Under the pieces are notes generated by a model. The model was given only the letters and a program-made list of their open reading frames with translations. It had not been told where the DNA came from and did not search any database. The translations under genes were made by a program, and so were the position numbers. Below, in pieces: positions 4,388-59,535 of a DNA stretch of 64,000 nt. Each line of letters starts with the position of its first letter. Within the stretch, counting starts at the first letter, position 1. Source of the stretch: an uncultured Planctomycetia bacterium (lineage in GTDB: Bacteria > Omnitrophota > Gorgyraeia > Pluralincolimonadales > Pluralincolimonadaceae); the NCBI GenBank assembly GCA_964650515.1, contig CAZYUB010000006.1:13858-77857 (forward strand), written 5' to 3'.

Positions 4388-4399
4388 GGCCATTTTTGC

Positions 4400-4428: not shown

Positions 4429-4484
4429 AACTGATACTTATCTGAAGATGGACCTCACCAGTAAAATATCAAAGGAAGGCTTCC

Positions 4485-29211: not shown

Positions 29212-29212
29212 A

Positions 29213-30457: not shown

Positions 30458-30481
30458 CCTCTCTTTAACAGGGGGATCAAA

Positions 30482-32059
30482 TTGGCAGAAGTCCCGCTCA
30501 GCAGTACCAGAGAGAAGATCCCTTTTACCTCAAGCATAAACTTCAGGTTCATCCTCATATTCATCCTGCTCGTTACCGTGACGACCTTCCTCAGCGGAAT
30601 GATACTTATATACCAGGGCCAGAGGTCGCTCGAGGACGCCGTCCTCAAGAAGAACCTGACCGCGTGCGAGAACGTCCGCAGCAGGATAGAGAGTTTCATC
30701 CAGGAAGCCAGGTCATCCGTCGAGCTTATGACGATGATGCCGGGGATAAAAGACCTCGACCTGTTCCAGATAGACAAGATGATGTACGAGGTCATATCGG
30801 AGCATGAGCGGCTCGACCCGGTGGCGGTCCTGAACGACCAGGGCATCATGATATCCTCGCGCAATCCTTCCGACCAGAACAAGGACATGTCCGGCAGCGA
30901 CCTTTTCCTGAAGACCAAGAGCAAGAGCTATATCTCGGACATATATTTTTCCTCCGACGGCCAGCCGTTGATAACCATCGCGGCGCCGATATTCGATTAC
31001 GACAGTTTCGGTAGGAGGATAGGCGTGCTTGTGACGGCCGTAAAGCTGCGCAGCCTCTGGCCTACTCTCGACAGGACCAAGGTCGGAGAGAAGGGCGTGA
31101 TAGTGGTTACGGACAGGAAAGGCGAGCTGGTCTACAGGTCCGGGGAAGCGAAGACGGGCAACGTCGGCAGTGACAGGACCGTGAAACTCGCGCTTGAAGG
31201 AAAGACAGGCAGCGTTAATTACGGCAACATGCTGAGTTCATACATGCCGCTTACGGGTACGGTCACCGGTTCCGTAGTCGTGAAGCAGCCGGCGCAGGAA
31301 GCCCTTTACGGCGTAGCTAAGATGAGGGGCCAATCGATGGTCCTGCTCGTGCTGAGCATTATGGTCGCTATCGCGATAGGCCTCGTGCTGTCGAACAGCA
31401 TGCTCGTCTCGGTCAGGAAGCTCCTTGTCGGCACGAAGATAGTCGCCGAGGGCGACCTCGGTTATAAGATAGACATAAAGACGGATGACGAGATCGGCGA
31501 GCTCGCGAGGTCGTTCAACGTGATGACCGTCGAACTCAAAAAGCAAAGGGAGAGGGCGATAACCGACGAGCTCACGCATCTCTACACGCATTCGTATTTC
31601 CTCGAGACGCTGAAGGCGGAGGTCTACAGGGCAAAGAGGTACAGGGCAAAGCTTTCCCTGATGATGCTCGACATCGACCACTTCAAGTTGTTCAACGACA
31701 ATTACGGGCACCAGGTCGGCGATGAGGTGCTTATCAGGATATCCGAGATGCTGAAATCGAGCCTCAGGGAATCCGATGTCGCGTCAAGGTACGGCGGCGA
31801 GGAACTCGTCGTGCTTGCGGCCGAGACCGACAAGGAAGGCATATACATACTCGCCGAGAGGGTGCGCAAGAAGATCGCCGAGGACGTTATCGTCGAGCAC
31901 GAGGACAAGAAGCTCAAGGTCACGGTCAGTATCGGCGTCACGACCCTTACCGAGGACGACATCAAGAGGGACATATTCCCCGACGACTTCCTGAAGCGGG
32001 TCGATATGGCGCTCTATAAGGCAAAGGACAAGGGAAGAAATTGCGTCGTACAGCTTTAG
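30482..32059 (+). CDS. Sensor diguanylate cyclase (periplasmic Cache-like domain, HAMP, GGDEF with a GGEEL active site).
   Basis: An N-terminal TM, a ~250-aa loop, then a second TM; HAMP; DIDHFKLFND…RYGGEELVV. TTG start at 30482 with a G-rich RBS. Confidence 0.8.
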   Translation: MAEVPLSSTREKIPFTSSINFRFILIFILLVTVTTFLSGMILIYQGQRSLEDAVLKKNLTACENVRSRIESFIQEARSSVELMTMMPGIKDLDLFQIDKMMYEVISEHERLDPVAVLNDQGIMISSRNPSDQNKDMSGSDLFLKTKSKSYISDIYFSSDGQPLITIAAPIFDYDSFGRRIGVLVTAVKLRSLWPTLDRTKVGEKGVIVVTDRKGELVYRSGEAKTGNVGSDRTVKLALEGKTGSVNYGNMLSSYMPLTGTVTGSVVVKQPAQEALYGVAKMRGQSMVLLVLSIMVAIAIGLVLSNSMLVSVRKLLVGTKIVAEGDLGYKIDIKTDDEIGELARSFNVMTVELKKQRERAITDELTHLYTHSYFLETLKAEVYRAKRYRAKLSLMMLDIDHFKLFNDNYGHQVGDEVLIRISEMLKSSLRESDVASRYGGEELVVLAAETDKEGIYILAERVRKKIAEDVIVEHEDKKLKVTVSIGVTTLTEDDIKRDIFPDDFLKRVDMALYKAKDKGRNCVVQL

Positions 32060-33273
32060 CATTAGCCGCGTTCATAGCGGTTGCTGCATTCCTGTCCGCG
32101 GAGGTGCTGGTCCGCGAGAGGGCCCTGAAGAAGCCCGAGACGATACAGAATATCGCCTTCACCAAAGGGACGACGGTGTATTTCGACGAATCCGGACGGC
32201 TGCAATTCGCGAGCCTCGGCGCCGACCAGCAGGTCATGGGCATCAGGTTCGCGAAAAGCACGTCCGTCTATTTTGACGGTTCCGGAAGGATCGAGTATGC
32301 GTACCTCGCAGCCGACCAACAGGTACTCGGATTGGACGTAAAGAGAGGGACCTCGGTATATTTCACGAAGAGTGGCAGGCTGGATTATATTATAGTCACG
32401 GGTGACGAGCAGATAGGCGGCCTGCTTTGCGCCAAGGGCTCAAAGGCGGGTTTCTATGAGTCGGGTAAACTCCGTTATGCCACGCTCGGCAAGGACCAGA
32501 TGGTCCAGGGTATAACCTGCGCGAAGGGCTCGATAGCGGGTTTCTATGAGTCGGGTAAACTCCAGCACGGGATATTATCCGGCGATTCGTGTGTGCAGGA
32601 TATAATGTTCGCGAAGGGCACCTACCTTCTTTTTTATGAGACGGGCAGCATAAAGAGCGCGTACCTGGTTGCGCCCACCGAGATAATGGGTATTGTCTGC
32701 GCGAACGGCCCGAGCGCGAGTTTTTACGAGAACGGGAAACTTGACTGGGCCGTCCTCGCGAACGTAAGCGAGGTCCAGGGGATATCCTGCGCGAAGGGCT
32801 CGACGATAGGGTTTTATAACACCGGCAGGCTGCAGTATGCCACGCTGTCGTACGAACAGGATATCGACGGCATCACCTGCGCTAAAGGCACGAAGGCCGG
32901 TTTTTACCAGTCAGGCAAACTCCAGTTCGCGACCCTTGCGTCAGACCAGCAGGTTTTCGGGGTCCCGTGCGCAAAAGGAACGGTAGCGGGCCTGTATGAG
33001 AACGGCAAGCTCCAGTATGCGACCCTAAACGCCGACAGGGAGATAAACGGCATACCCTGCGCGAAGGGAACGAAGGTCGATTTTTATGAGTCCGGAAACC
33101 TGCAGAACGCCACGTTGTCCAAGGACCATAAGATAGGGAAGACCGATTGTCCTAAAGGAGCGGTCGTCGGTATACGCGAATCCGGCACGCTCAAGTACCT
33201 GATATCCGGAGGATCGAAGGTGAGCTTCGACGAGAACGGAAACCGGAGAGATACCGAAAAGACCGCGGATTAA
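32041..33273 (+). CDS. Secreted tandem-repeat protein (MORN-variant/YwqK-like 23-aa repeats, ~15 copies).
   Basis: Signal peptide, then repeats with consensus CAKG(T/S)xAGFYESGKLQYATLxxDQxVxGI. TTG start overlapping the GGDEF gene 3' end. Confidence 0.6.
   Translation: MRRTALALAAFIAVAAFLSAEVLVRERALKKPETIQNIAFTKGTTVYFDESGRLQFASLGADQQVMGIRFAKSTSVYFDGSGRIEYAYLAADQQVLGLDVKRGTSVYFTKSGRLDYIIVTGDEQIGGLLCAKGSKAGFYESGKLRYATLGKDQMVQGITCAKGSIAGFYESGKLQHGILSGDSCVQDIMFAKGTYLLFYETGSIKSAYLVAPTEIMGIVCANGPSASFYENGKLDWAVLANVSEVQGISCAKGSTIGFYNTGRLQYATLSYEQDIDGITCAKGTKAGFYQSGKLQFATLASDQQVFGVPCAKGTVAGLYENGKLQYATLNADREINGIPCAKGTKVDFYESGNLQNATLSKDHKIGKTDCPKGAVVGIRESGTLKYLISGGSKVSFDENGNRRDTEKTAD
32150..33230. repeat. 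Intragenic tandem array of ~69-bp units encoding the 23-aa repeat. Some copies carry 28-bp exact identity.
   Basis: gcgggtttctatgagtcgggtaaactcc occurs identically at ~32441 and ~32543. Confidence 0.6.
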
Positions 33274-33312
33274 GCCCCCTCCCCATTTTTTGCCCTTTTT
33301 GTAAAAAACCCC

Positions 33313-33341
33313 TTGACGGCCTTCCGTACGAGTAATACAAT
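33313..33341 (+). promoter_or_regulatory. Sigma70-like promoter, TTGACG-17-TACAAT.
   Basis: TTGACG at 33313-18 and TACAAT at 33336-41. An RBS GGAAGGAGAG lies upstream of the ATG at 33374. Confidence 0.5.
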
Positions 33342-33373
33342 TATATACGAAATATGAGGGAAGGAGAGTCCAT

Positions 33374-33568
33374 ATGGACACAGGCACGAAGTACATAACT
33401 ATGGATGAGGTCACGAATTACTTAAGCCTCAGCGAGGGAAGTATCCGTAAGCTTATACGGGAACAGAGCTTTCCGCATGTTAAGGTCCTGAGAAAGTACC
33501 TGTTCAATAGGCAGGATATCGATGAGTGGCTTAAGATGCATTCGCAGGGCCTCAGGGCGAAAAAGTAG
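33374..33568 (+). CDS. Small HTH DNA-binding protein (excisionase/MerR-like HTH_17 family).
   Basis: 64 aa. ITMDEVTNYLSLSEGSIRKLIREQSFP is a helix-turn-helix. No adjacent integrase. Confidence 0.6.
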   Translation: MDTGTKYITMDEVTNYLSLSEGSIRKLIREQSFPHVKVLRKYLFNRQDIDEWLKMHSQGLRAKK

Positions 33569-33592: not shown

Positions 33593-36500
33593 ATGCTAAG
33601 CCAAAATTGCAGTAAATATGTTATATCCATATCTATCGCGCTCGCGATATCATTCCCTTCGATATCGTGTTCCGGCGGCGAGGAGTTAGATTACAATAAA
33701 CTTTCGCTTGAAGCCGCGCTGAACATTATGTATGAGATAGACCCCGAAATACAGTCAAGTAAACTTGCCGTAGATTCCGCCCATCTCGAGATAAGGGCGA
33801 GGAAACTTGATACGTTCCTCCCGAAGATAAGCGCGGGCGCCACGCTTGTAAAACCGGTAAACGTCTTCTCCTCGCTTGAGCAGCAAAAGGAGATGTTCTT
33901 TGAGCAGCAGCTCGTAATAGAATTCGCCGTTACTTCTGACAGCCTGAAACAAATTGCCAGGGAAAGGAAGAATTACGAAACAAGCATGCTCGAGCTGAAA
34001 CAGGACATATCTATCAAGAGCCGCAGGCTGATCGCCGTATATTACGCGGTCGCCAGGGCGCAGGAAAACTACAGGTCAAGCTGCGATAATGTCGAGACGA
34101 TCGAGAAATATTTAAAGGAAGTGGAGAACAGCAATGAATATTCGGAAGTGGAGAAGTTCGAACTGAAGAACTATCTCGGGGTAGTGATCGAGGAAAAATT
34201 GGGGGCGTTGAACACGCTTATCAATACGAGAAGGGACCTTCGCGGGCTTCTCGGGCTTGAGGACAGGGAAGACATCATAATAACGGTCGAGGAACTCCCG
34301 GATAACATAAACAAGGACGCGGCTTTTGCGGAAAACCCGTTCATCAGGCCGGTAGACTATACGATGGACATATACAAGAAAAGGGAGGAAGCGGCTGGCA
34401 TCGCCGCTCGTATCAGCGCGTCGCCCCTGTTGGGGCTTTCGTCCTCGACTATCTTCGGAATAGGCGAAGGTAAAGGGACGAAGTTCCAGAAGAAGGCGAT
34501 AACGGATACCCAGGTGGAATTATTCTTAACCGACTTCGGCTATACCGCGGGGTTGAATAATGCCGGAAGGATCGGGTCGCAGATAGCCCGGCTCGAGCTG
34601 CTGAAGGCCGAGGAGGACCTGGAATACGCGGACCGCATAACGAGCGATAAGCTCTCCGAGCTGAGCGCGCTTATAGATAATTACAGGGATTATATAACCA
34701 AGACCGAAGATACTTTCAGGATGTTCAAGGAGCGGCTGTCCCTGCCTGTTATCGAGATAATAAGGATGAACGATAACATATATAAAGCGAGGTACGCGCT
34801 GCAGCAGGCGCTCGTTGATTATACGGTCATGCTGTCCAAGCTTAACGGTGTCGAATTGAAGCCGGAGCAGTCGAGCCCGCAGTACCAGGATATGGGCCTT
34901 GAGGACCTTTTGGCAAGGGGAGAGAGGAGCGATATCCTTACCGCAAAGCGGGTAGCCGAAAATAAGCTCAGGATGGAGAACGTCAGGGTCAAGGCCATGA
35001 AGGCGGGATACCTGCCGAAGATAACCGGGGCCGCGGTGCTTGAGAACGCCAATATAGACGGCACGCCGTACACGAACACGAGGGCTTATCTCGCGCTCGA
35101 AGCCCGCCTTTTTAACGGTAAGACCGGCCAGGCAGTGAAGGCGGCAAAGGCAGGCGCGGAGGCGGCGGGATACGAGGGGGCCGCGTTACAGAACTATGTC
35201 GCGGACGAGATAATAAGGAATTACCTGGCGATATTAAGGAACAAGAACACCTTAAAGAGACTGGAAGAGATAAAGGAGATAAAGGCCGGCATTGTCGGGC
35301 GCATGATGGAGGAGGCGCAGGGCGTAAACCCGAAATACAGCAATTCGGACATACTCCCTCTTGTCCTCCAGCAGATGGAGCTCGACAGGGTCATGGCGGA
35401 TGTGGAGTTCTCGCTGGCGGTGGTCGAATACGACCTGAAGAGATGGACAGGCATACCGCTCAACGAAAATATAAGCGTGAAGGAGCTGCCGGGTTTCGGG
35501 ACAGACGAAGGCCTCTCGAAGTTCAAGGCGCTCATCAGCTCCAGGGTGGCGCCGTATTTCGACGGCAAGGCCCCGGTCAAACAGGCCTTCAGCGCGGTCG
35601 AGAAGAACAGGGCCGGGGAGGCGCAGGCCGTCGCGTACGAAGGCGCGCTCTTAAATGTGAAATACGAGACGAAGGGGGCGGATTATTACGGATGGAAGAA
35701 CCCGGACAAGCAGTTGTCTTTCAGCGTCTCCGTGCCGTGGGGCGACCGCCGGGAGCGGCTGGCACAGTCGGACGCTTCAAGGGCGCGCATCAGGTCCGAG
35801 ATAGAGTATATAAAAAGCATGGATGAGTATGAAAAGGAAAGGCTGGCCGTAAAGACCGCTTATGACGCTTCGAAGGAGCTTATCGAGAACCTGCGCAGCA
35901 AGATGGAGAACATGGAGTCGCAGTACCGCATAACGGACGAGCTTTACAGGTTCGGCGGCAGGACGCAGAGGCAGATGGTCGACGCGAAGCTGGATTATAC
36001 CGTGGCCTGCATGAGCTATGAGGAAGCGGTCCTTGACAACTATTACCATAACGCGAGGGAGATACTGATTGTAGAGAAGGACGCGGGGCCCGAAGGCGGC
36101 GAGAAGATACTTCTGTCAGGGCTGCAGGAAGCGATAGACATGGCGCTGGAGAACAGCCGGCAGGTCAGGAAATACGAAGAGTTGCTCGAACTGGAGAAGG
36201 AGACGCTCAAGTACTACAAGACGTTCAGGGTGAAAGGTGACATTATCGAGAAGTACTACAGGATAGACAATAAGGGTTGGGAAAAACAGAAGGACCTGCT
36301 TACGACAGGTGCCGTAACGACCGTTGAAGCGGACCTTGTGAATAAATTTATGAGCAAGAGGCAGCAGCGAAGGATCGAACTGGCGGAAAAGGACGTGGTC
36401 CAGGCGAAGTTCGACCTTACCCTGAAGGTCGCGGACGCGTATTCCGATTACCTCGGCTCCCTGGCCGAAGCGTCTGAAGTCGAGGCGGAATATGAAAAGC

Positions 36501-37408
36501 AGAAGACGGTCCTCGCGGAGATGGAAGAGCTGTTCAGGGCAAAGGCGATAGCGCATGTCGACCTCTTAAAGCAGAGGGAGTTCGTCGAGAGCATGTATCA
36601 GAAATATATAGACATCAACAGGTATACCGAAGGATACAGGAACAACCTCGGTATAGCGGTCGGAGGCCTCGATCCGCGGTTCTCGATAGTGAATACCGAG
36701 GTCTACGACAAGTCCGCCAAACGAGTCGCCCTTACCGGGGATTTTGAGATTAAGCAGAGGTTATTGGACGAGCTGACCGCGGCGAGGCAGTCGCTGCAGG
36801 GTCCGTTGACGGACGACCTGCTGGAACGCGCGGAAATCGATATAAGCATGGCCAGGCTCGATACCGAAGCCATATCAAAACAGATCAAGACGCTTGCGAT
36901 AAACCTCGAGTATAATTACCTTACCGATTATATGGGATTATTGACCAAGGATGAGGCCGCTTTCTCGCGTTATGATAACATGTCGGAATTTATCTCGCTG
37001 AACTCGATGGACAAGATATTTGATCCCGTGACCGGCACGAAAGCGAGAGTCGCCGCAATAAAGGAGAAGGTGGCGGCGTTGAGGTCTAAATCATACACGA
37101 AGGACGTGGTCCAGGACGCGTTGAGGAGGTTTACAGATTACCAGATAGCCGTTGCCGACTACGGGAACTACGAAAAGCACGAGTCGGCGCTGGAAAAAGA
37201 GATGTCAGAGAAGATGCGTATAGAAGAGGCGGCCGGAGAGACGGCCCTGATCAGGCAAAGGGAGCTGAAAGAGACGGTGCTTAACAACAAGATCAATAAG
37301 ATACAGGCGTTCTACCGCATGATGAAATTTATGAACGAGCTTGACCGTTATCTGATAAGATATACGTCAAAGGGGATAGAATCATACGTAACGTTCACGG
37401 ATAAATGA
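33593..37408 (+). CDS. Giant TolC-like outer-membrane efflux lipoprotein (1271 aa, internally duplicated OEP-like modules).
   Basis: Lipoprotein-type signal (…SFPSISCSG). An OEP N-terminal signature LSLEAALNIMYEIDPEIQ, and a second one at LSGLQEAIDMALENSRQVRK (~36110). Extended coiled-coil content. Confidence 0.6.
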   Translation: MLSQNCSKYVISISIALAISFPSISCSGGEELDYNKLSLEAALNIMYEIDPEIQSSKLAVDSAHLEIRARKLDTFLPKISAGATLVKPVNVFSSLEQQKEMFFEQQLVIEFAVTSDSLKQIARERKNYETSMLELKQDISIKSRRLIAVYYAVARAQENYRSSCDNVETIEKYLKEVENSNEYSEVEKFELKNYLGVVIEEKLGALNTLINTRRDLRGLLGLEDREDIIITVEELPDNINKDAAFAENPFIRPVDYTMDIYKKREEAAGIAARISASPLLGLSSSTIFGIGEGKGTKFQKKAITDTQVELFLTDFGYTAGLNNAGRIGSQIARLELLKAEEDLEYADRITSDKLSELSALIDNYRDYITKTEDTFRMFKERLSLPVIEIIRMNDNIYKARYALQQALVDYTVMLSKLNGVELKPEQSSPQYQDMGLEDLLARGERSDILTAKRVAENKLRMENVRVKAMKAGYLPKITGAAVLENANIDGTPYTNTRAYLALEARLFNGKTGQAVKAAKAGAEAAGYEGAALQNYVADEIIRNYLAILRNKNTLKRLEEIKEIKAGIVGRMMEEAQGVNPKYSNSDILPLVLQQMELDRVMADVEFSLAVVEYDLKRWTGIPLNENISVKELPGFGTDEGLSKFKALISSRVAPYFDGKAPVKQAFSAVEKNRAGEAQAVAYEGALLNVKYETKGADYYGWKNPDKQLSFSVSVPWGDRRERLAQSDASRARIRSEIEYIKSMDEYEKERLAVKTAYDASKELIENLRSKMENMESQYRITDELYRFGGRTQRQMVDAKLDYTVACMSYEEAVLDNYYHNAREILIVEKDAGPEGGEKILLSGLQEAIDMALENSRQVRKYEELLELEKETLKYYKTFRVKGDIIEKYYRIDNKGWEKQKDLLTTGAVTTVEADLVNKFMSKRQQRRIELAEKDVVQAKFDLTLKVADAYSDYLGSLAEASEVEAEYEKQKTVLAEMEELFRAKAIAHVDLLKQREFVESMYQKYIDINRYTEGYRNNLGIAVGGLDPRFSIVNTEVYDKSAKRVALTGDFEIKQRLLDELTAARQSLQGPLTDDLLERAEIDISMARLDTEAISKQIKTLAINLEYNYLTDYMGLLTKDEAAFSRYDNMSEFISLNSMDKIFDPVTGTKARVAAIKEKVAALRSKSYTKDVVQDALRRFTDYQIAVADYGNYEKHESALEKEMSEKMRIEEAAGETALIRQRELKETVLNNKINKIQAFYRMMKFMNELDRYLIRYTSKGIESYVTFTDK

Positions 37409-40400
37409 GCGGGGACATGTTAATAAGAGCAAGAAAGATATTTGTCATACTCATAGCGGCGGCGGCCGTCCTTTTCACGGCGCGTTCATGTGTGCGCCGT
37501 CTCCCGGATGCGGATGACGCAGCCGGCAAGCAGCGGCCCGCTGCAGCCGATGCCGCGCGCGCCGGGAACCCTCTCGACCATCCGGCGCAGAGAGATACCG
37601 CGATAAACGCGGGTGAGCTCGTATCCTTCATCCTGGAATGGTCGAACCCTGAGACCGGCCTCGTCCCGACAATGATATCGAAGAGCGGCACGAAGAACCC
37701 TTTCGCGGACATGACCTACTCTTACGCGCAGGCGGTCGCCCACCAGAATCTCTTGATGGCCGGGCAAACGGACATTTCCTTGAAAGCCGCGGAAGTGTTA
37801 AGGCAGAGAGGCGAGGCGCGCGACATCCCGAACGGGCTTAATACGCGCACCGGGTTAAGCGAGGACCCCCTGATAACAGCCGGGCCGAACGCGTACTGGG
37901 GCATAAGTTTCATCAGGGAGTACAGGTTGGCAGGCGACGAGAAGTGGCTGGTTGCAGCTAAGCGGCGCGCGGATTTCCTGCTGAAACTGCAGGCGGATAA
38001 CGGCGGCATACGCAAGAGCCCTTACCAGGGCAATATAGAATACGAGGCGAAATCCACCGAGGAGAACCTCGATTGTTACGCGCTGTTCGACCTGCTGTCG
38101 CAGCTCACGGGTGAGGAGAAGTACGCCACGGCAAGATCAAGGATACTCGGCTGGCTCTCCGCGAGCGGTGTGTACAACAAGGATGCGGGGTATTTTACGG
38201 CCGGCACATCCAAGGACGCCGTGAATCCCATTTATGCTACCGACGCGAACGCGCTCGCAATAATCATACTCGGCCCTGAGCTGCTCGATTCCGAAGGCGA
38301 GGTCCGGTTCGGCGGGGCCGGAACAAGCCGCAGGATATTGGACAGCCTTGATGCGGCCAGGGTGAAAGTGGATTATCTCCACCCGTCCGGCATCACTGTA
38401 AAAGACCTAGAAGGGTTCGATTTTACCGATAAGCTCGGCAGGCCCGGCAGGAAACCCGTCCTGAGCCCCGAGTTCACTTCCCAGGCGGTGCTGGCATATC
38501 TGGTGATGGCGAGGCATGCGAAAGAAAAAGGCGATGTCGAATATTCGGCCAAGCTTATAGAAGACGCGCGCCGTTATCTCGATAACCTCGGAAGGATGGC
38601 AGCGCGCACAGGGAAGTCGGCGTCCCTGCCTTATGCCTCGGAGAAAGGGATAAGGCGTTATCCCTTCGACAACTGGCTGACGCCTCAGGGAGACGCGGAT
38701 ATATCGGCGACATGGGCGTCGTTCCCGCTGTCGGGGTTCAACCCGTTTGCGCTTGAAGGGTTCGGGCTGCGAGATGCGATGAAGGATTCCGCGGAATGGA
38801 TGTCCGATACAGGCGAAGCCATAAAGCCGGAAAAATCTTTTGTTGTCCCCGAACCGGAGAAGATCGTGTCGGAAGCCGAGCTCATCGCCCAGCAGGAAGC
38901 GGCAAGGGAAGAGGCGATGAGGAAGCCGATCGTGTATTATAAGGTCCTTTACGACCAGGTCAATAAGGACGCGACTATCGCGAGAAGGAGGGTGATAGCC
39001 GTCCTGATGACAAGCTACAATTGCTGGTTCGACGGCGTGCTGGATACGGCGTCGCGGGACTATGACGTGATCGGCGTCGACGGAAATTACAAGGTCTTCT
39101 ATAAGAGATTCCAGGACCTTCCCGAAGCTACGAGGAAGGCCGTGCAATCGGAATATTCCTATCTTGACGAGTCTACGGGTATCAAATGGAGGATGGCCCC
39201 TAAGTACAATTTGAGCCTCGACGGGCAGTATAAGCCGTATTACGCCTTCGAGATGGACGGCGATTACAACATAATCAGGCAGTTCGCGTCCGAGAGCGAC
39301 GTCCCTGAAGAGAACAGGGCCGACCTGAAGAACGTAAAAGCCCAGTTCCAGTCCTCCAGCGGCCTTCCCGAAGGCCACCTCATAGCGAGGTATTTCACCG
39401 CGCTCGAGGTGGACAGCGAGATGAATATAATGGACTATTACGAAGCGATAGACGACCTTCCGGGCCTCGTCTCCAAAGTCCCGATTAGCGAAGATGAGTT
39501 CAGGAGGTATACCAAGGCGAAGGACTGGGAGAGGCAGGACCTGGTCTCCGCCGGCATCATCCCCGATGAAAAAGGCCTGCTTGCCGTCCAGGAGAGAGGC
39601 ATATATTATGCAAAGGTCCTCGGCCTCGATGAGACAAGGAGGCTGCGCGTAGGCGGCGTCTCCGTAGCCAGCGGACGCGAGATAATCATGGGAACCAGGT
39701 TCAGCCTGACGAACTGGCGCATCGGGGAGGCATCGAAGACGAACGCCGTCAAATATGAAATAGGGCTCATAAAGGGCATGGTCATAAAGCCGCGCGAACA
39801 GTTCAGCGGAAGCGGCCCATCGCCGACACAGCCGCTTTGGATATACCTCGGGGAAGACATGATCGCCTCAGAGACCGCGGAATTCAAGAGGAGGCTCCTG
39901 GACCTGCTGAAGCGCATCAAATCGGAGAAGGACGCGCAGACGCGCCTAGAGCTCGTGGAACAATACGACCGGCTGGCCGGAGAGCTCGCCTGGTACGACG
40001 AGAACGGGCTCATTCATGTCATCTATTACGGCGCAAAAGCCGCCGAGAAGAGGTTCGGGGATTTCGCATCTGCGAAGGCAAGGGCGGAGAACAGCCTGAG
40101 GACCTACGAATCGATCCTGGGCAGGGACCAGCTCGGGCGGGACCTGCGCGATTCATACGGGCGCGTCTGGCTTAAGGTAATAAACGAGGCGACCGGCCGC
40201 ATATTATACGTCGAAGTCTATGATATGGCGGGAAACCTCGAGACGATATATTCCGGGGAGATCGATATCGACCCGCTCACTAAAGAGGTCAGGTCCGAAA
40301 TAAGGACCGACCTCGAATACGACAAGGATACCCTGCAGGTCGTCGGCAGCCACACATACCGCACCGATGAGAACGGGGACTGGGTCTCCGACATATCCGA

Positions 40401-43400
40401 GAGCATATTCAAGGGGTATACGCCCGACAAGAAGTATTTCGTTTCGGAGGTGCATATATTCGAGAGGGGCGAGGACGGCAGGATAATATTCGAGGACGGG
40501 AAAGCCAGGTATACGAAGAAGATAGAATATTACACGCCGGAAGGCGATATATCGGCCCAGATGGTGAAGAACATAATAACTATAGTCAGGTACGGCGCCA
40601 ACCGTGAGGTCGTGAAAGAGGTCTTCCTCGAGCGGCCGGGCAAGACCCTGACAGGGGAGAACACGGACCTCGATAACCTGACGCAGGGCCTTGCGTGGGT
40701 CCGCAGGTACAAGACGACAGGCAAGATATTGACCTTCAAGGACGCGCTCGTGAAGTCCCTGACATCGCTGCCCGAAGAAGACAGGGAAACGACCGCGTTG
40801 CTGATATTGAACAGGCTCGGCGCGGAGAAGGTAGGCAGGATCAGCGATACGCTTATGCTGGAAGAGAACGAGGTCACGAACAACCTTACCGGCGACCCGG
40901 CCGCGCCCGGAGAGGCGCCCTATTTCGTGTTCTACGAACCGGGCGACAGTTTGGGCCGGCAAAGGCTCATAGTGCGCGGCGGCACGATGGAGGTCCCCGT
41001 CGACTGGATACCCGAGGCCGATATACCTTCGAAGACGCTCACGTTCAACCTTGCCGGCGAGCTGGTCTCGATAAGCGACGTCGACAGCTCTGTCCGAGCG
41101 GATTCAGTACTGCCTCCCGGATACATAGAGAGGGTGGCGCCGCTCGGCATCAACGCCGATACGTTGCTGCCCCAGATGAAGAAGAGGATATTCAGGATGG
41201 TGACCGGCGATGACGGCCTGCCGCATTTCACGAATACGGTGGCCATTACGACGGTCAGCTACATGATACCCGACGACGTGCTCGGCAGGGAGCTCCTGAA
41301 CGTCAAGTTCGTCATGCTCGGGGACGAGACGACGCTCCACAACGGCAGCACGCTTAAGCTCAAGCGCAATATATTCGGCAAGGACACGCTTATCGAGTCG
41401 TGGAAGGACGAGAGGGGCGAGGCCCGCACCCGGGCAATAGCTAAGAAAGAGGATACCGTAGTATATGAATGGTATAAGGAGGGCCTCGACGCCGGCGAGC
41501 TGCGCGAGCGCCTGAAGTCCGAATGCGGCAAGCTCGTGAAACGCGAAATACTGGAGGAGGCGCTCGTGAACGTCGCGGAGTCGCCGTTCGGCACGATGCC
41601 GGGCTACCACGTGATAAAGCCGAACGGGCGTATAGGCGAGATCAAGTATTTCTCCGGCACCGTCGAATACCCGCGCAGCGTCTTCAGCCATGCCGGGGTA
41701 AAGGTGCCTTATGAATCGGAAGCGCCGCCGTTCAAGCTCCCGGACGGGCCCGCGATAAGAGGAGTGAAATACGGCGTGTTGAACTCAGATTACGCGTTCT
41801 ACGACGTGCATTCGCTCAGCGGTCAGCTGATAGTACTCGAACGCCGTTTCATAATCCTGCGCCTCATGAACATACTGCCGGTGCAGGGCGGCAGGCAGAC
41901 GGAATATTATGACCCGCTCGTCCCGTATTCATACCTGAGGCCGATAAAGATAGAAAGGGATTTCAGGCCCGGCACTCAACCCGAGGGCACGCAGCCGGGC
42001 ACCCAGATCGTCGCGGTCTTCATCGGCGACGCGAGCATCTACCATCGTAACGGGTGGCAGACCCAGACGTTCCTCGAGAGGAGGCCGTTCGATATAGAGC
42101 ACTGGATACGCTCTGATTACGAGTTCGACGATAACGGCGTATATAAGTTCAAGAAAGAGCATATCGAAAGCAGCTCGATATACCTTATGAGGTCTATCGA
42201 ATGGCAGAAGCCGCTCGCGTTCTTCGCGCTTGTGGCAGGACTCTTCTTCCTTGCCGGCTATGTCTCGCGCAGGAGGCTTAGGGCCGGAAGGGAATCCAGG
42301 ATCAACGCCGCATGCGCGGCCTCAAGGCCGTTCAGCAGGGAAATGCTCGCGCGGCTCTCAGTGCCCGAAGAGCTGAAAGCCGCATGCATAAAGGTATATG
42401 AAGGGCGTGAGCCGGCATCGGGGCTCTTCGCCGCATCCGAAAAGGTCTTCAGGCCAAGGATCGAGGAATGCCTGCGCGGTTTCGGGGCCGACCCGGCCGA
42501 GCATACGGCGAGCGTTAACGTCCTGCTGGACAGGATCGCGTGCCGTCTCGGCAGGGAGGAGATAAATTTAAGCAACCTGTTTGCGGCCGAAGCGAAAGAG
42601 TTCGTGGAATGGTCGAAGAGGAACGGTCATTCCGTCAGCATCGCCGCGGGCAAGACCGGAACGGATGACCTGTCGTTAATAGTCCTGTTCAGGCTTGTAT
42701 TCGACGAGTCGATGGAATTCAGGGCAGCCGTTACCGGCTTCAGGTATTATCTCTTCGATAAGTCGCTCGTCCTGCTCGCCGCGGGCAGGAAAGGCGATAT
42801 ACTGCGCGAGATACGCGGCGATACTCTCGCTTTCCTCGAGGCACTGAGGCCCGGTTATGACAAGAAACTGGGGCTAATAAAGGAATATATTTTTACATAT
42901 GACGACATGAACGAGCTTTTTGAGGGCAAGAGGCCCGGGTTCATCGCCTCATTTGCCCGGCTGGAGGGAAAGACCGCCGCGCAGAAACTCTCCTGGCTCG
43001 CGTCGAAGGCGGGCAAGGATGCCGCCGCCGACGTGATGTCATATAAGAGCTACGCATGGCTTAAGACGTTCCCCGATAAGGCCGGCGTCCCGCAGTTCGT
43101 CTCAAACCTTAGGCGTTTCTGGGGATTCCTCGTGCCTATGTTCGCGGCCGTGACTTTGGGCGGTGTCGCTATAGCGCTGAAACGCATACCGTTCGCCCAA
43201 CGCCTCGAAGGCGCGATGGGACCTGTAGGGGCCGCATTCGTCGAGGTAACGGCCCTAATACTCATAGGCCTTGTCATAACAATGGCTTTCATGAAAGGCA
43301 CCTTAGGCGATTACAAGCCGGCGCCGAAGGGCGCGGCAGGGAATAAGGAGCTCAGGCGGTCGATACGGCTGTTCTGGATAATGTACGGCTCGGCCTCTTA

Positions 43401-46400
43401 CCTCTGGGGCCTCTTCAGCATATTCGTGATAATCTGGACCGTCAGGATCATAAGCAAGCTCACGTTCGTGAACGCCGGATGGGGCCTGTTCATCAACGCG
43501 AGCGCGCTGCTGCTTACGTTCACGTTCATACTGTCGAGCTTCTTCTCGCTCTTCTATATCATAATAGCGTTGATAGGGTTCTACCGCGGCAAGAGGGAAG
43601 GCGTAGGCCAGGTCATATCATGGATCCAGATGAGGAGGAAGTTCGAGGCCTCAAAGCGTCGTTTTGGGCAGGTCATCGCGCCGGCCGAAACGCTATGGAG
43701 GTCATATTGGAATCTGATGATAAAAGAGCTTTACGATTATTATGTCATCAGCGCTCCGGAGAGGGATGCCCTCTCGTATTCCGAGAAAAATACAGCGCCG
43801 AAACTCGAGGGGCTACCGCGCGCAGATGAGGCCTCCGAAAGGATGCGCCTCTATGTCAACAGCTGGCTCATGGAGATGCCGAAGGCGTGCTCCTGGAACG
43901 ACCTGCCGACGTTCACTGCGATGGTGACGGCGTTCAATGAACCGGTCAGCTTCTCGTTCGATGAGCTCAACGGCTGCGACAGGGGCGCCGAAGTCACGAG
44001 GCTCAACCACCTGATCGGGTTCTACAGGCCGCAGTGGGAAGAGTTCGTCGGCCGGCTCGATACCGCCGACCTCGGGCAGTATATCACGAGGGAGCAACTG
44101 AAGCTGCTCTTCGGCCTGAAGAAACTGCCCGAAGGGTTGCCGGAACAGCTGAAGGAGAAGATCAGGAAATGGGCAAACCTCACGGTCCAGTGCGTCGAGA
44201 AAACGGCCGTGGAGGTATACAGGATACGCGATGCCTTTGCCGCCTATGCCGGGGCGTGCTATCCCGGCGCGTCCGCCGCGGACATAGAGGAGCTCGTATC
44301 CCGCAAGGTCCAGATACTGCTTAATTACGAGGGGTTCCACAGCCCTGCGACCCGCGATTACGACAGGGAGTCCCTGAAGAGGCTCATGAAAGAGCTTCCG
44401 CGGTTGGATGTCTATTGGGCGGCGGCAGAGGGCGACGATAAGGGCCTCGACCGCGGGCTCCACCGCTATAACCCGGCGACGGACGGCATCGAGCTTATAG
44501 AGACCGCGCCGTTCACCGCTACGGTAAAGAAAGGCAAGCCGAGCGGCCTGAACCAGGCGCTGCCGTTCGTGAAGGGCGAGACGGTCCTCTTCTTCGACGC
44601 GAACTGCTCGGTCAGGATAGAGGATGCCCTGAAACTTCCCGTCGCGCTTTCCGAGTTCGCGGACGACCCGTCGCTCGGAGAGGTCCTGTTCGCCGAGTAC
44701 ATATTCAACAAGAACTATTCATGGATCTCGCAGGCGATAGGTTTCAACGAGGAGACATTCGTCTCGGTAACGCAGAGGACGTTGAATATCTTCCAGGCCT
44801 GCGGTTTTTACGGCCACAGCGCGATAATAAAGACGGACATGATCACCGCGGCCTGCGGCCTGCCGCAGGATTATATATCCGAGGATATACTGCTGGCCAC
44901 GGCATTGTGGAAGAAGGGGCTGAAGACCTCGCATAAGGAATACCTGACTTTCGGCAAGGGCAGGGAGACATCGTATTTTACGAGTTTAGTGCCGCTGACG
45001 AAATGGGCAATGGGCTCCTCCGACGCCGCGATAGGCCGCGTCATGCGCGGCATACTCGACTCGCGGAATATCCATGTCGCGCAGAAGTTCATGCTGATGT
45101 TCGGGTTCTCGTTCTTCTACCAGACCCCGCTGATGTTCGTGATAAATTTCCTTTACCTGTGGCTTATGATCTGCTGGGGCATAAACGGTTTCATGGCGGT
45201 CCCGTACCCGATCGTCTTCGGCATCCTCGGCCTGCTCTTCAACCAGGCGATAACAGCTACCGGCGTCGCGTATCTCGTGGAGCATTACGGCTTCAGGAGG
45301 TCCTTCTCCGCATACATGAAGCTTGTCGCGAAGAACCACTTCTTCTACGCGTCGGTCATACCCGCGTACGCGTTCGGTTTCCTCGCGGGCCTGAAGGGAA
45401 AGGCGGTCTTCATCATAAGCCCGAAGGGATGGAACCTCGGCCACCTGCCCCTGAAAGTAATATGGGGGGAGAAGAGGGCAATACTGAAGGCGGCATTATT
45501 CAGCACGATGGTGGGCCTCCCGCTTGCGTACCTGCTTGTGTCGGCCGAGATGGTCCCTTTATGGATAAGCCCGTTCATACCGTTCCTGCCGTTCGCCGTC
45601 GTGGCGGCGATGTACGCGGCGGGCCTCGAATGGAAAAAGACGGGCTTGGGTTTCCTGAAGGACTGGCGCGACGAGATCGTCCCCGACGGGGATATCCGCA
45701 AGATGTCCGTGATAAAACTGCAGATGATCTACGCGATGGTGCTGCTCGTCTTCACAGGGGTCGGCTTCGTCATGTGGGGCCTCATATTCTCGTCGCTGGC
45801 GGTCAAGGCGCTGTTCATATTCTCGGTCCTTTATATAAGCACGACGATGTCGTTCATAATAATGCCGCTCTTTGCGCATTCCCAGCCGGTCGCGCTGTTC
45901 AAGGAGATAACGATATCGAAGTTCTGGAATTATGCGGCGATACCGGCGCTGTTCGCGAGCATCGTTTTCGGCGCTGCCTCTATCTTATCGAGCCCGGCTA
46001 CGGCTTCGCCCGAATCGGTCGTCTATACGCTTCTCGGCATATCGTTGCTTGTCGGATGGGCGCTGCTTAAATGGAAACTCAGCGGGTACGCGAGGCTTGA
46101 CAGGTGGCTAAAGCAGAACCTGGCCGGGTACGCCGGCGCGCCCGCGTACCGTAAAGCAGACCTGATGGATGACGTATACTTCGCGCACCAGGAGCTGATA
46201 CAGGGCGACAGGCAGGAGGAGTTGAGATATAAAAGGAAAGCCGGGAAGGCCAAGGCGGTGTTCGTGTTCACGCTGTCTGCCGCGCTGCTGATGTATTTCG
46301 CGTCGGAATTCTACCCGAGGTTATTCAGAAACTGGATATGGCTCCTGATAGCGGCCGAGGCGGTCTATTTGCTGATACTCAACGTCGAGCACACGAAAGA

Positions 46401-46629
46401 CGACAGGATATACCTCGGCAAGCTCTACGGCGGGATAATTATAAATGACTTCAACAGGCTCAACGAAAATGTCAGGGCCATGGAAGATATCTGGAAGAAA
46501 CTGGACAGGGTATACAAGGCCAGGCTCGTCAGGATCTACGAGGACGAATTAAGGGCCAAGAGGGCGATGACCGTTTACATGTCCAGGTGCATCAGGTCTT
46601 GGGAGGCGGGGCAGCAGAGGCCTACCTAG
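37405..46629 (+). CDS. Giant (3074 aa) multi-domain membrane polysaccharide synthase-like protein. It combines an N-terminal (alpha/alpha)6 glycosidase-like domain, a long central region, and a C-terminal polytopic GT2-type processive glycosyltransferase core.
   Basis: The start overlaps the TolC-like stop (ATGA). GT2 motifs: KPSGLNQALPFVKGETVLFFDAN (K-G-LN-AL…FDAD-like, ~44533), ISEDILLATALWKKGLK (TED-like, ~44876), and LTKWAMG (degenerate QxxRW, ~44995). Over 20 predicted TM helices flank the core. Confidence 0.6.
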   Translation: MSGDMLIRARKIFVILIAAAAVLFTARSCVRRLPDADDAAGKQRPAAADAARAGNPLDHPAQRDTAINAGELVSFILEWSNPETGLVPTMISKSGTKNPFADMTYSYAQAVAHQNLLMAGQTDISLKAAEVLRQRGEARDIPNGLNTRTGLSEDPLITAGPNAYWGISFIREYRLAGDEKWLVAAKRRADFLLKLQADNGGIRKSPYQGNIEYEAKSTEENLDCYALFDLLSQLTGEEKYATARSRILGWLSASGVYNKDAGYFTAGTSKDAVNPIYATDANALAIIILGPELLDSEGEVRFGGAGTSRRILDSLDAARVKVDYLHPSGITVKDLEGFDFTDKLGRPGRKPVLSPEFTSQAVLAYLVMARHAKEKGDVEYSAKLIEDARRYLDNLGRMAARTGKSASLPYASEKGIRRYPFDNWLTPQGDADISATWASFPLSGFNPFALEGFGLRDAMKDSAEWMSDTGEAIKPEKSFVVPEPEKIVSEAELIAQQEAAREEAMRKPIVYYKVLYDQVNKDATIARRRVIAVLMTSYNCWFDGVLDTASRDYDVIGVDGNYKVFYKRFQDLPEATRKAVQSEYSYLDESTGIKWRMAPKYNLSLDGQYKPYYAFEMDGDYNIIRQFASESDVPEENRADLKNVKAQFQSSSGLPEGHLIARYFTALEVDSEMNIMDYYEAIDDLPGLVSKVPISEDEFRRYTKAKDWERQDLVSAGIIPDEKGLLAVQERGIYYAKVLGLDETRRLRVGGVSVASGREIIMGTRFSLTNWRIGEASKTNAVKYEIGLIKGMVIKPREQFSGSGPSPTQPLWIYLGEDMIASETAEFKRRLLDLLKRIKSEKDAQTRLELVEQYDRLAGELAWYDENGLIHVIYYGAKAAEKRFGDFASAKARAENSLRTYESILGRDQLGRDLRDSYGRVWLKVINEATGRILYVEVYDMAGNLETIYSGEIDIDPLTKEVRSEIRTDLEYDKDTLQVVGSHTYRTDENGDWVSDISESIFKGYTPDKKYFVSEVHIFERGEDGRIIFEDGKARYTKKIEYYTPEGDISAQMVKNIITIVRYGANREVVKEVFLERPGKTLTGENTDLDNLTQGLAWVRRYKTTGKILTFKDALVKSLTSLPEEDRETTALLILNRLGAEKVGRISDTLMLEENEVTNNLTGDPAAPGEAPYFVFYEPGDSLGRQRLIVRGGTMEVPVDWIPEADIPSKTLTFNLAGELVSISDVDSSVRADSVLPPGYIERVAPLGINADTLLPQMKKRIFRMVTGDDGLPHFTNTVAITTVSYMIPDDVLGRELLNVKFVMLGDETTLHNGSTLKLKRNIFGKDTLIESWKDERGEARTRAIAKKEDTVVYEWYKEGLDAGELRERLKSECGKLVKREILEEALVNVAESPFGTMPGYHVIKPNGRIGEIKYFSGTVEYPRSVFSHAGVKVPYESEAPPFKLPDGPAIRGVKYGVLNSDYAFYDVHSLSGQLIVLERRFIILRLMNILPVQGGRQTEYYDPLVPYSYLRPIKIERDFRPGTQPEGTQPGTQIVAVFIGDASIYHRNGWQTQTFLERRPFDIEHWIRSDYEFDDNGVYKFKKEHIESSSIYLMRSIEWQKPLAFFALVAGLFFLAGYVSRRRLRAGRESRINAACAASRPFSREMLARLSVPEELKAACIKVYEGREPASGLFAASEKVFRPRIEECLRGFGADPAEHTASVNVLLDRIACRLGREEINLSNLFAAEAKEFVEWSKRNGHSVSIAAGKTGTDDLSLIVLFRLVFDESMEFRAAVTGFRYYLFDKSLVLLAAGRKGDILREIRGDTLAFLEALRPGYDKKLGLIKEYIFTYDDMNELFEGKRPGFIASFARLEGKTAAQKLSWLASKAGKDAAADVMSYKSYAWLKTFPDKAGVPQFVSNLRRFWGFLVPMFAAVTLGGVAIALKRIPFAQRLEGAMGPVGAAFVEVTALILIGLVITMAFMKGTLGDYKPAPKGAAGNKELRRSIRLFWIMYGSASYLWGLFSIFVIIWTVRIISKLTFVNAGWGLFINASALLLTFTFILSSFFSLFYIIIALIGFYRGKREGVGQVISWIQMRRKFEASKRRFGQVIAPAETLWRSYWNLMIKELYDYYVISAPERDALSYSEKNTAPKLEGLPRADEASERMRLYVNSWLMEMPKACSWNDLPTFTAMVTAFNEPVSFSFDELNGCDRGAEVTRLNHLIGFYRPQWEEFVGRLDTADLGQYITREQLKLLFGLKKLPEGLPEQLKEKIRKWANLTVQCVEKTAVEVYRIRDAFAAYAGACYPGASAADIEELVSRKVQILLNYEGFHSPATRDYDRESLKRLMKELPRLDVYWAAAEGDDKGLDRGLHRYNPATDGIELIETAPFTATVKKGKPSGLNQALPFVKGETVLFFDANCSVRIEDALKLPVALSEFADDPSLGEVLFAEYIFNKNYSWISQAIGFNEETFVSVTQRTLNIFQACGFYGHSAIIKTDMITAACGLPQDYISEDILLATALWKKGLKTSHKEYLTFGKGRETSYFTSLVPLTKWAMGSSDAAIGRVMRGILDSRNIHVAQKFMLMFGFSFFYQTPLMFVINFLYLWLMICWGINGFMAVPYPIVFGILGLLFNQAITATGVAYLVEHYGFRRSFSAYMKLVAKNHFFYASVIPAYAFGFLAGLKGKAVFIISPKGWNLGHLPLKVIWGEKRAILKAALFSTMVGLPLAYLLVSAEMVPLWISPFIPFLPFAVVAAMYAAGLEWKKTGLGFLKDWRDEIVPDGDIRKMSVIKLQMIYAMVLLVFTGVGFVMWGLIFSSLAVKALFIFSVLYISTTMSFIIMPLFAHSQPVALFKEITISKFWNYAAIPALFASIVFGAASILSSPATASPESVVYTLLGISLLVGWALLKWKLSGYARLDRWLKQNLAGYAGAPAYRKADLMDDVYFAHQELIQGDRQEELRYKRKAGKAKAVFVFTLSAALLMYFASEFYPRLFRNWIWLLIAAEAVYLLILNVEHTKDDRIYLGKLYGGIIINDFNRLNENVRAMEDIWKKLDRVYKARLVRIYEDELRAKRAMTVYMSRCIRSWEAGQQRPT

Positions 46630-57350: not shown

Positions 57351-57427
57351 GGGCCCATAGCTCAGTTGGTTAGAGCAGCTGACTCATAATCAGCGGGTCA
57401 TAGGTTCAAGTCCTATTGGGCCCACCA
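57351..57427 (+). tRNA. tRNA with a CAT anticodon (elongator Met, or Ile2/lysidine type), with encoded CCA.
   Basis: Cloverleaf GGGCCCA/TGGGCCC acceptor stem, anticodon loop CTCATAA, TTCAAGT T-loop. G1:C72 excludes initiator tRNA. Confidence 0.8.
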
Positions 57428-57434
57428 AATTTCC

Positions 57435-57511
57435 GGGCGATTGGCTCAGTTGGTTAGAGCGCCACATTCACATTGTGGAGGTCAAAGGTTCGAATCCTTT
57501 ATCGCCCACCA
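57435..57511 (+). tRNA. tRNA-Val (anticodon CAC), with encoded CCA.
   Basis: GGGCGAT/ATCGCCC acceptor stem, anticodon loop TTCACAT, T-loop TTCGAAT. Confidence 0.8.
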
Positions 57512-59117: not shown

Positions 59118-59138
59118 AATAATTTTCAGGAGAAGGAA

Positions 59139-59510
59139 TTGGCTATAGAAAGCCGCGCCGGCATAAGGGTAAAGATAGACGCGACCATAATGGTCGAGAT
59201 CGATACGGGCATGAAGGACAAGGTCCGCATAATCCGCGAACCCCAGAAGGCCGTCGTCGTCGACATAAGCATCATCGGCCTCGGCGTGATATCGCCGATA
59301 TTCCTTCCGAAAGGCGCCATCCTCGTCATACAGCTTGATACTACGATCTTCGATACAGACAAACCCGCGAGGGTAATAGGCGAGGTCAGGTACTGCAGGC
59401 CTTCGAAGAACAAGGATTACAGGACCGGCGTGAAGTTCCTCGATATAGACAAGACCCTGCTCGCGAAGATAAAAGAGTATGTCGAGCAGCATAAGCACAA
59501 CGCGGTATGA
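59139..59510 (+). CDS. PilZ-domain c-di-GMP-binding protein.
   Basis: RxxxR-like start and DISIIGLGV (DxSxxG). RBS AGGAGAAGGA, then a TTG at 59139. The track ORF start at 59073 would lie inside rnpB. Confidence 0.6.
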   Translation: MAIESRAGIRVKIDATIMVEIDTGMKDKVRIIREPQKAVVVDISIIGLGVISPIFLPKGAILVIQLDTTIFDTDKPARVIGEVRYCRPSKNKDYRTGVKFLDIDKTLLAKIKEYVEQHKHNAV

Positions 59511-59535
59511 ACCTACGGGAGACGCGGCGCGGCAT

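Follow-up and report, generated by a model that had tools for sequence, protein, structure and literature searches.

The described machines nearest in kind to the one reported here are found among the synthase-dependent glucan systems activated by cyclic di-GMP (c-di-GMP), and are the proposed tripartite BgsA-BgsB-TolC system of Sinorhizobium meliloti, in which a c-di-GMP-activated mixed-linkage glucan synthase is joined by a periplasmic partner and TolC (PMC13438883), and the cyanobacterial cellulose system, a related TolC-using route of beta-glucan secretion cited in the same paper (PMC13438883). Here we analysed a 64,000-nucleotide (nt) stretch of contig CAZYUB010000006.1 (positions 13,858 to 77,857 of the forward strand; hereafter the window) from an uncultured bacterium assigned to the Omnitrophota, in which the gene for a membrane-bound diguanylate cyclase overlaps the start of a gene for a repeat protein (here called REP), and is followed by genes for a TolC-family protein (OEP) and for a very large putative glucan synthase. 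The window is a plus-strand-dominated chromosomal stretch, and its closest public genomes are two 'Candidatus Omnitrophota' metagenome-assembled genomes. Omnitrophota are an uncultured phylum of very small, partly predatory bacteria. With moderate confidence, we read the four genes as a conserved, c-di-GMP-linked trans-envelope glucan secretion module, whose first two cistrons encode the cyclase and REP. No description of a cyclase-REP-OEP-synthase module was found in the literature searched.

Gene order was compared across the contigs of graded Omnitrophota orthologues of the cyclase (98-61% identical, found with a search using the sensor region) together with metagenome loci. Where REP was at least 61% identical to that of the window, the order etfA-cyclase-REP-HTH-OEP-synthase, with HTH a small helix-turn-helix gene, was found as far as the contigs reach (L012, L013, L019, L020, L021 and L023); the run from cyclase to synthase was complete in L012, L013, L020 and L021, with the contigs of L019 and L023 ending after its upstream part. 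In loci L005 and L006 the order is cyclase, REP, TolC-like gene, with the synthase lying off the end of the locus, and L022 carries REP-HTH-OEP. In a clade with REP at about 50% identity, L014, L017 and L025 have cyclase-REP-OEP-synthase without the upstream etf genes and without the HTH gene, and L024 has cyclase-REP-OEP, its contig ending within the OEP gene. The cyclase and REP genes overlapped by 19 nt wherever the junction was read (L005, L006, L012, L013, L014, L017 and the contig of P0161), and in L014 all of the four-gene junctions overlap end to end. Two further cyclase orthologues are followed by an unannotated gene of about 400 amino acids (aa). Across these loci the module proteins have diverged to 37-65% identity while the gene order was kept and the flanks (etf, HTH) varied, with TolC-family proteins of approximately 1270-1300 aa and synthases of approximately 3040-3120 aa.

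The four genes were adjacent in every Omnitrophota lineage with enough contig, with the exception of L015/L016 ('Omnitrophica WOR_2'), in which the cyclase is kept at the same position before cvpA-NIF3-dnaG-rpoD, and REP, OEP and synthase are all absent. This joint absence, with the cyclase kept, suggested that REP belongs with the secretion machine and not with the cyclase. When the cyclases were placed in a neighbour-joining tree rooted at its midpoint, the module was present on both sides of the root and the module-less lineage was nested beside P0162 and P0163; most simply, the ancestor had all four genes, and REP, OEP and synthase were lost jointly on one occasion. The same L015/L016 loci (2481-5713) encode a 554-aa protein with multiple transmembrane (TM) segments and C-terminal tetratricopeptide repeats (TPR), which begins at the same overlapping LRRS codons as REP does and directly precedes the cvpA-NIF3-dnaG-rpoD genes.

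The first gene of the module (30482..32059, plus strand, as are all module genes) encodes a 525-aa sensor diguanylate cyclase, which starts at a TTG codon 24 nt after the stop of the ferredoxin-EtfA gene, with a Shine-Dalgarno sequence (AGGGGGA) approximately 6 nt upstream. Its Pfam and NCBIfam matches lay above the cut-offs, with dCache_1 at 65.1 bits (cut-off 45; aa 50-224), HAMP at 42.6 bits (aa 303-353), GGDEF (PF00990) at 150.1 bits (cut-off 23.8; aa 359-520) and TIGR00254 at 168.9 bits (cut-off 37.4). A hydrophobicity scan placed TM-like segments at aa 24-42 and 285-303, either side of the dCache_1 region of about 240 aa, and because these two segments bracket the Cache domain it is predicted to face outward, into the extracytoplasmic space; the cyclase thus has the layout of a membrane sensor, in which two TM segments enclose the Cache domain and HAMP comes next. 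The active-site motif GGEEL (aa 438-442; 31793-31807) and the I-site RESD (aa 429-432; 31766-31777) were located by alignment and coordinates, the I-site being intact, five residues N-terminal to GGEEL and conserved in 12/12 orthologues. The DIDHFK..ND, GHQVGD and KDKGRN blocks line up with those of PleD, WspR and other solved cyclases (E = 1e-28 to 1e-32). Among the 12 orthologues the fifth residue of the active-site motif was L, M or F (GGEEL, GGEEM or GGEEF), which makes GGEEL a conservative variant of GGEEF, and a figure legend gives GGEEL as the active-site motif of the Bacillus subtilis cyclase DgcP (PMC5422440). The ratio of nonsynonymous to synonymous substitution rates (dN/dS) was 0.06-0.08. 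With all of the sequence features of an active, product-inhibited enzyme carrying an extracytoplasmic dCache sensor, the cyclase is likely to be active. The domain scores and motif bear out the first-pass annotation of this DNA, made by a model from the letters alone, which had described a GGEEL sensor cyclase with Cache-like and HAMP domains.

REP (32041..33273, 410 aa, TTG start) consists of an N-terminal hydrophobic helix, a short linker, twelve units of 30 aa and a partial thirteenth. Its open reading frame (ORF) overlaps the cyclase stop, with its first codons (TTG-CGT-CGT) lying within the conserved ...GRNCVVQL codons of the cyclase. The hydrophobic N-terminus, MRRTALALAAFIAVAAFLSA, is a signal peptide or a signal anchor, and REP is exported or membrane-anchored and is under purifying selection (dN/dS = 0.09-0.16). 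An overlap between the cyclase and the start of a secreted MORN-variant repeat protein had been proposed in the first reading of the sequence, and agrees with the 19-nt junction, this export signal and the MORN_2 score given below. That reading had counted about 15 copies of a 23-aa unit, where we find twelve full 30-aa (90-nt) units at 32152..33231, without a single indel between them, and then the partial thirteenth; the unit consensus is I-x-C-A-K-G-T-x-V/A-G-F-Y-E-S-G-K-L-Q-Y-A-T-L-A-x-D-Q-x-I-x-G.

Against Pfam MORN_2 (PF07661) the whole REP protein scored 34.8 bits (cut-off 29.6), a sum of weak repeats none of which passes singly, and the hidden Markov model matched REP only over its positions 3-16, approximately, of 22, which correspond to the FYE(N/S)GKL hairpin. 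MORN_2 repeats have a period of about 22-23 residues with one hairpin each, and REP departs from this in having 30 aa and four short strands per unit; no NCBIfam model matched it. An AlphaFold2 model built from six sequences (predicted local distance difference test score, pLDDT, 89.1; predicted template modelling score, pTM, 0.74) starts with a helix, continues through a disordered linker at aa 18-34, and then shows four short strands in each unit, approximately 48 in total; it predicts with high confidence that REP folds into an elongated all-beta repeat. The best Foldseek matches of this model in the PDB were beta-hairpin repeat modules (E = 1e-8 to 1e-3, 10-16% identity), namely the combined repetitive oligopeptides (CROPs) of TcdB and TcsL, Rhs/YD shells, engineered OspA sheets, the glucan-binding region of alternansucrase, and LytC; a profile search of the PDB gave no sequence relative of REP. 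HMMER, run exhaustively against 1.84 billion cluster representatives, gave 1080 relatives at E <=0.001, and 66 at E <=1e-30, with lengths from 88 to 1629 aa. MORN_2 was matched in 29 of the 36 top-scoring family proteins scanned (the window protein included) and no other domain recurred, which places REP in a large, unannotated MORN_2-like sub-family with a 30-residue period. A word-indexed homologue search with REP returned 5 matches only, and an exact look-up of its sequence in public assemblies returned no record. The closest non-orthologous relatives (P0006, P0007 and P0020; 42-43% identical) carry as many as about 20 units of this 30-aa type, and after them a non-repeat C-terminal domain of about 330 aa that all three share; from one family branch to another the number of units thus differs widely, which it does not among REP orthologues. 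A weak PD40 match was seen in 1/36 of the scanned proteins and was not tied to these three.

The third module gene (33593..37408) encodes the 1271-aa OEP, which has an N-terminal hydrophobic segment and matches Pfam OEP (PF02321) at 8.9e-19 in four stretches. It is named 'TolC family protein' in the sources and is about three times the usual length of TolC. The first and second thirds contain two OEP stretches each, like one TolC protomer, and the last third is without a match; the protein may be a fused, multi-protomer (single-chain) TolC. Self-comparison by blastp returned nothing, and hhalign between the thirds was not significant, even for the first and second, which both match OEP, this comparison having low power. 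AlphaFold2 modelling of residues 1-1200 with eight close orthologues gave a pLDDT of 38, too low for the model to be used.

The fourth gene (37405..46629), which overlaps the OEP gene by 4 nt, encodes the putative glucan synthase of 3074 aa (Pfam Glucan_synthase, 1.3e-23), whose orthologues are 3038-3119 aa in all module-bearing Omnitrophota loci. From hydrophobicity, the protein has an N-terminal TM segment, a probably extracytoplasmic region of about 1580 aa, and TM clusters on both sides of an FKS1-like/GT2-like glycosyltransferase domain (aa 2138-2590, approximately). The glycosyltransferase domain is preceded by this extracytoplasmic region, which has a weak match to glycoside hydrolase family 76 (GH76), and by about 1400 aa without any Pfam match. 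Among PDB sequences, eukaryotic FKS1 (glycosyltransferase family GT48; 5.6e-13) was matched ahead of BcsA (1e-6). The locus has two of the features expected of a c-di-GMP-activated, synthase-dependent exopolysaccharide system, a membrane-embedded processive glycosyltransferase and, beside the synthase, a gene for export across the outer membrane.

In the mechanism that we propose, the cyclase would sense an envelope or external cue and supply local c-di-GMP that activates the synthase, as in the c-di-GMP-activated synthesis of cellulose, alginate, Pel, poly-N-acetylglucosamine (PNAG) and rhizobial mixed-linkage glucan. REP would act as a periplasmic structural part of fixed length, either a strut or adaptor between the synthase and the TolC-like channel or a guide for the nascent glucan, and would take the place held in known systems by the HlyD-type adaptor (BgsB) or by BcsB. 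This role is suggested by its export signal, elongated fold and invariant unit number, by its position between the cyclase and OEP, and by its joint loss with OEP and synthase. The Foldseek matches of REP include carbohydrate binders (the TcdB CROPs, the alternansucrase glucan-binding region and LytC). A more specific form of the proposal, which we put forward tentatively and consider unlikely, is that REP is a new kind of periplasmic adaptor, all-beta, fixed in length at 12 units of 30 aa and either anchored or secreted at the inner membrane, replacing a HlyD-type membrane fusion protein (MFP) in a TolC-dependent, c-di-GMP-controlled machine made of an FKS1-like (GT48-like) synthase and a triple-length, possibly fused-protomer TolC, with the unit count serving as a ruler for the width of the Omnitrophota periplasm.

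Transcription around the module was considered from the flanking sequence. Upstream of the cyclase-REP pair lie plsX, fabH, fabD, fabG, fabF, and genes for an acyl-CoA dehydrogenase, EtfB and ferredoxin-fused EtfA, the last three at 27254-30481, just 5' of the cyclase. No promoter-like site was found in the 24-nt gap between the end of etfA and the cyclase start, and in the clade of the window transcription may run from the electron-transfer flavoprotein genes into the pair. Just 3' of the REP stop is a promoter-like site, TTGACG-17-TACAAT (33313..33341, plus strand; 10/12 matches), which was the best such site in the 8.5 kb from 25.5 to 34 kb and was invariant in three genomes. Between it and the TolC-like gene is a gene for a 64-aa DNA-binding protein of the excisionase type (HTH_17; 33374..33568, plus strand), which was present only in the clade with REP identity of at least 61% and absent in L014, L017, L024 and L025. 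The promoter-like site at this place is likewise confined to the former clade; in the other, the genes overlap. In the clade with REP at about 50% identity, a leader of about 240 nt separates a terminator from the cyclase start, so that the cyclase there has its own leader. Within it a block of about 70 nt (GCCGATAACTAAGGTCGGAACGA...GGGAGAAyTGTCTCC...GACGTTC...GTGTGCC; L014 395-470, the same in L024, and L017 about 983-1060, the same in L025 upstream of 4367) is near-invariant while its flanks diverge, with two predicted hairpins and two distinct sequences in all; it matched nothing in Rfam and is not present in the window.

Several observations weigh against the module as we read it. The glucan synthase assignment was made by sequence similarity only (Pfam and PDB), and the role of REP was deduced from position, topology and phyletic pattern. 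Known adaptors that dock to TolC are alpha-hairpin proteins, which the all-beta REP does not resemble. The template modelling scores of its Foldseek matches were only 0.09-0.25, as for generic beta-hairpin repeats. Distant members of the REP family do not lie beside cyclases, TolC-like genes or this synthase: twelve distant metagenome REP-family loci had no cyclase, OEP or synthase homologue nearby, and in the P0001, P0002 and P0004 loci, found by the word-indexed search, no cyclase adjoined REP. In the clade of the window, the conserved promoter and the HTH gene part REP from the OEP and synthase genes, and this split, together with the cyclase start 24 nt after etfA, implies transcription units that differ from a simple four-gene operon. 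Lastly, neither PilZ nor any other c-di-GMP receptor family was detected in any segment or the C-terminus of the synthase (E up to 1), no such domain turned up in OEP, REP or the HTH protein, and a c-di-GMP riboswitch was not among the Rfam matches of the window or of L014, L017, L024 and L025. As for a tripartite TolC system, the locus supplies a TolC-family outer-membrane factor and no HlyD-type adaptor; REP had no HlyD match in Pfam or NCBIfam, and no MFP gene was among the scanned window ORFs.

In S. meliloti BgsA, the region that binds c-di-GMP is C-terminal and is not a PilZ domain (PMC13438883); a non-canonical site like that of this BcsA relative may place the Omnitrophota module, too, under c-di-GMP control. 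The link between the cyclase and polysaccharide synthesis is supported by synteny. Accordingly, the first-pass proposal of c-di-GMP control over the neighbouring polysaccharide locus stands as far as the pair's conserved place in the gene order, and falls short in that the cluster yielded no c-di-GMP receptor.

The principal rival to a machine-component role for REP is that it acts in the periplasm as a co-sensor for the cyclase or as its regulator, binding the dCache domain or presenting a ligand to it, as YfiR does for YfiN/TpbB, with proximity to the synthase being secondary. The tightest coupling in the cluster is indeed that of the cyclase and REP, whose genes share the 19-nt overlap in each lineage for which the junction was read; both REP and the dCache domain lie on the outer face of the inner membrane, and in the window's clade REP shares its transcription unit with the cyclase and not with the synthase. 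The loss pattern runs the other way, as in L015/L016 the cyclase persists without REP, which vanishes with OEP and synthase, and in L014 REP also overlaps the OEP gene. A strictly fixed, elongated repeat of 12 units and about 360 residues would also seem to be more than a ligand presenter needs. We regard a co-sensor as rather improbable.

A little less probable again is adjacency without a shared mechanism, in which the cyclase would be a general source of c-di-GMP, for example for PilZ/PilT pilus genes, and REP would have an unrelated function in the envelope or in adhesion. A candidate target exists 26 kb downstream of the cyclase, where a PilZ gene is paired with pilT. This gene (59139..59510, plus strand, 123 aa; 43.3 bits, cut-off 22.5) lies outside the cluster, 12.5 kb 3' of the synthase and past cvpA, NIF3, dnaG, rpoD, two transfer RNAs (tRNAs) and the RNase P RNA, and overlaps the start of a pilT-like ATPase gene (59479-60636). 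Its ORF has DxSxxG and, where RxxxR is expected, RIIR. It directly follows the class A RNase P RNA (177.6 bits, 58686-59120), and as that RNA overlaps the mechanical ORF start at 59073, the TTG at 59139 is the likely start. The PilZ protein that the first-pass annotation had placed at 59139 is thus real; its implied connection to the synthase is not, given the distance and the overlap with the pilT-like gene. Similarly, tRNA-Met and tRNA-Val at 57351-57511 overlap the mechanical start (57441) of a Zn-ribbon protein, whose true start should be further downstream.

The absence of a detected receptor in the cluster and the occurrence of REP relatives in many unrelated contexts are both consistent with such a chance arrangement, and since all of the lineages compared come from one phylum-level group, shared ancestry inflates the apparent synteny. 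One such context is that of P0001 (303 aa, 33% identical to REP; L001 990-2724 and L002 717-2361), which is followed on the opposite strand by genes for an EF-hand/dockerin-like protein and, two genes away, a PilZ-domain protein; the repeat family may here be linked to c-di-GMP a second time and independently, or the arrangement may be chance. What chance adjacency does not readily explain is that the order was kept while etf and HTH flanks came and went and the proteins diverged to 37-65% identity, that overlapping stop and start codons join all four genes in L014, and that REP, OEP and synthase were lost together. We retain the secretion module as the favoured reading.

The repeat units of REP are ancient, individually conserved and invariant in number, and the repeats seen in the DNA are a relic of old duplications. 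In-register unit pairs were 37-68% identical in DNA, and Tandem Repeats Finder run on 31900-33400 returned 0 rows. At positions with the same amino acid, the same codon was used at a frequency of 0.44, compared to 0.47 expected from codon usage (66 unit pairs), and this agreement with the expectation indicates that synonymous sites between units are saturated. Each unit was 72-96% identical in DNA to the unit at the same position in two related genomes, compared to at most 71% to any other unit, and at the protein level the same unit was 63% identical across six REP orthologues, with different units within one protein at 39%. Orthologues were drawn from a genome scan, a metagenome scan and look-ups of cyclase orthologues; the full-length ones, at 91, 89, 74, 62, 51 and 50% identity, aligned with 0 gap columns across the 12 units, and the differences in length (410-430 aa) were confined to the signal region and the last partial unit.

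Unit comparison showed one exact 28-nt repeat, in the AGFYESGKL codons of units 4 (32446..32473) and 5 (32536..32563), which occurs once, the next-longest in-register run being 18 nt; the earlier statement that some units are identical over 28 bp is correct for this one pair and otherwise overstated. A run of this length was improbable when synonymous codons were redrawn for the same protein (P = 0.0008). It is absent in both close relatives, L005 having 3 and L006 having 4 synonymous differences over the stretch, and is compatible with local coincidence (two point changes) or with at most one short conversion tract from unit 4 to unit 5 in the window lineage. That REP has recently expanded, with near-identical DNA units recombining to vary the copy number of a surface protein between strains, is very improbable: the 28-nt run and the wide range of lengths in the family (88-1629 aa) speak for it, and against it are the 12 units in every orthologue from 91% down to 50% identity, the low identity between units, codon identity at its expectation, the absence of the 28-nt run from both relatives and the purifying selection on the gene. 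REP accordingly lacks the near-identical units and changing copy number of contingency-type hypervariable repeats, and the recent duplication, ongoing recombination and copy-number variation suggested by the first-pass annotation are refuted for this orthologue group, in the last case by the very constancy across related genomes that it had named as its disproof.

Downstream of the module, a convergent ORF of 459 aa (46622-48001, minus strand) overlaps the synthase stop by 8 nt and has weak matches to NTP_transferase and GlgC-like proteins (E = 0.06 and 8e-4); it may provide the synthase with sugar nucleotides. Beyond it are cvpA, NIF3, dnaG, rpoD and further housekeeping genes.

The partly identical DNA repeats are therefore those of an ordinary, old and stable protein repeat, and what deserves attention is a conserved Omnitrophota four-gene module that combines a c-di-GMP cyclase, an FKS1-like synthase of 3000 aa, a triple-length TolC-family protein and an uncharacterised beta-repeat protein of 30-aa period. 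If the secretion module is correctly read, it would extend the paradigm of c-di-GMP-activated, synthase-dependent polysaccharides to a new phylum and to a GT48-like enzyme, would point to a non-PilZ c-di-GMP receptor, and would assign a function to one branch of the large, unannotated family of such repeats, with its 1080 cluster representatives.

Compared with known proteins, REP resembles MORN_2 proteins (YwqK-type and Fusobacterium MORN2) in passing the whole-protein cut-off and sharing the FYE(N/S)GKL hairpin turn, and differs from them in its period of 30 aa with two hairpins per unit (against about 22-23 aa), its export and its place in a polysaccharide cluster. Like CROPs, alternansucrase, LytC, Rhs/YD and OspA, several of which bind carbohydrate or cell wall, it is predicted to be an elongated stack of short beta-hairpins, a likeness to solved modules that is generic and not evidence of membership. 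The cyclase-REP pair recalls the YfiBNR (TpbB) system of Pseudomonas and Escherichia coli, where a membrane cyclase with a periplasmic sensor domain is likewise co-encoded with a periplasmic protein; the two systems have no sequence or fold relation, and REP is a 410-aa repeat protein that was lost with the synthase and not with the cyclase.

Closer in organisation is the cellulose (Bcs) system with its cyclases AdrA/DgcC and DgcQ, in which a synthase-dependent machine for glucan is served by a membrane diguanylate cyclase of its own, as may be the case here, and in which the synthase is joined by a periplasmic accessory protein (BcsB) and an outer-membrane channel. BcsA carries a C-terminal PilZ domain, whereas none was detectable in the synthase here; the outer-membrane part here is TolC-like, whereas BcsC combines TPR with a beta-barrel, and REP has no similarity to BcsB. 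From BgsA-BgsB-TolC the locus differs in that the partner is an all-beta, 12 x 30-aa MORN_2-like repeat and not a HlyD-type MFP, that the synthase is of 3074 aa and nearer in sequence to eukaryotic FKS1 than to BcsA, that the TolC-like protein is of 1271 aa, and that a cyclase is encoded in the cluster. Synthesis in the S. meliloti system is controlled by c-di-GMP, as would be predicted for the Omnitrophota one; common to both, as read here from the genes, are a processive glucan synthase of the inner membrane, a periplasmic partner encoded along with it, and a proposed dependence on a TolC-family outer-membrane protein.

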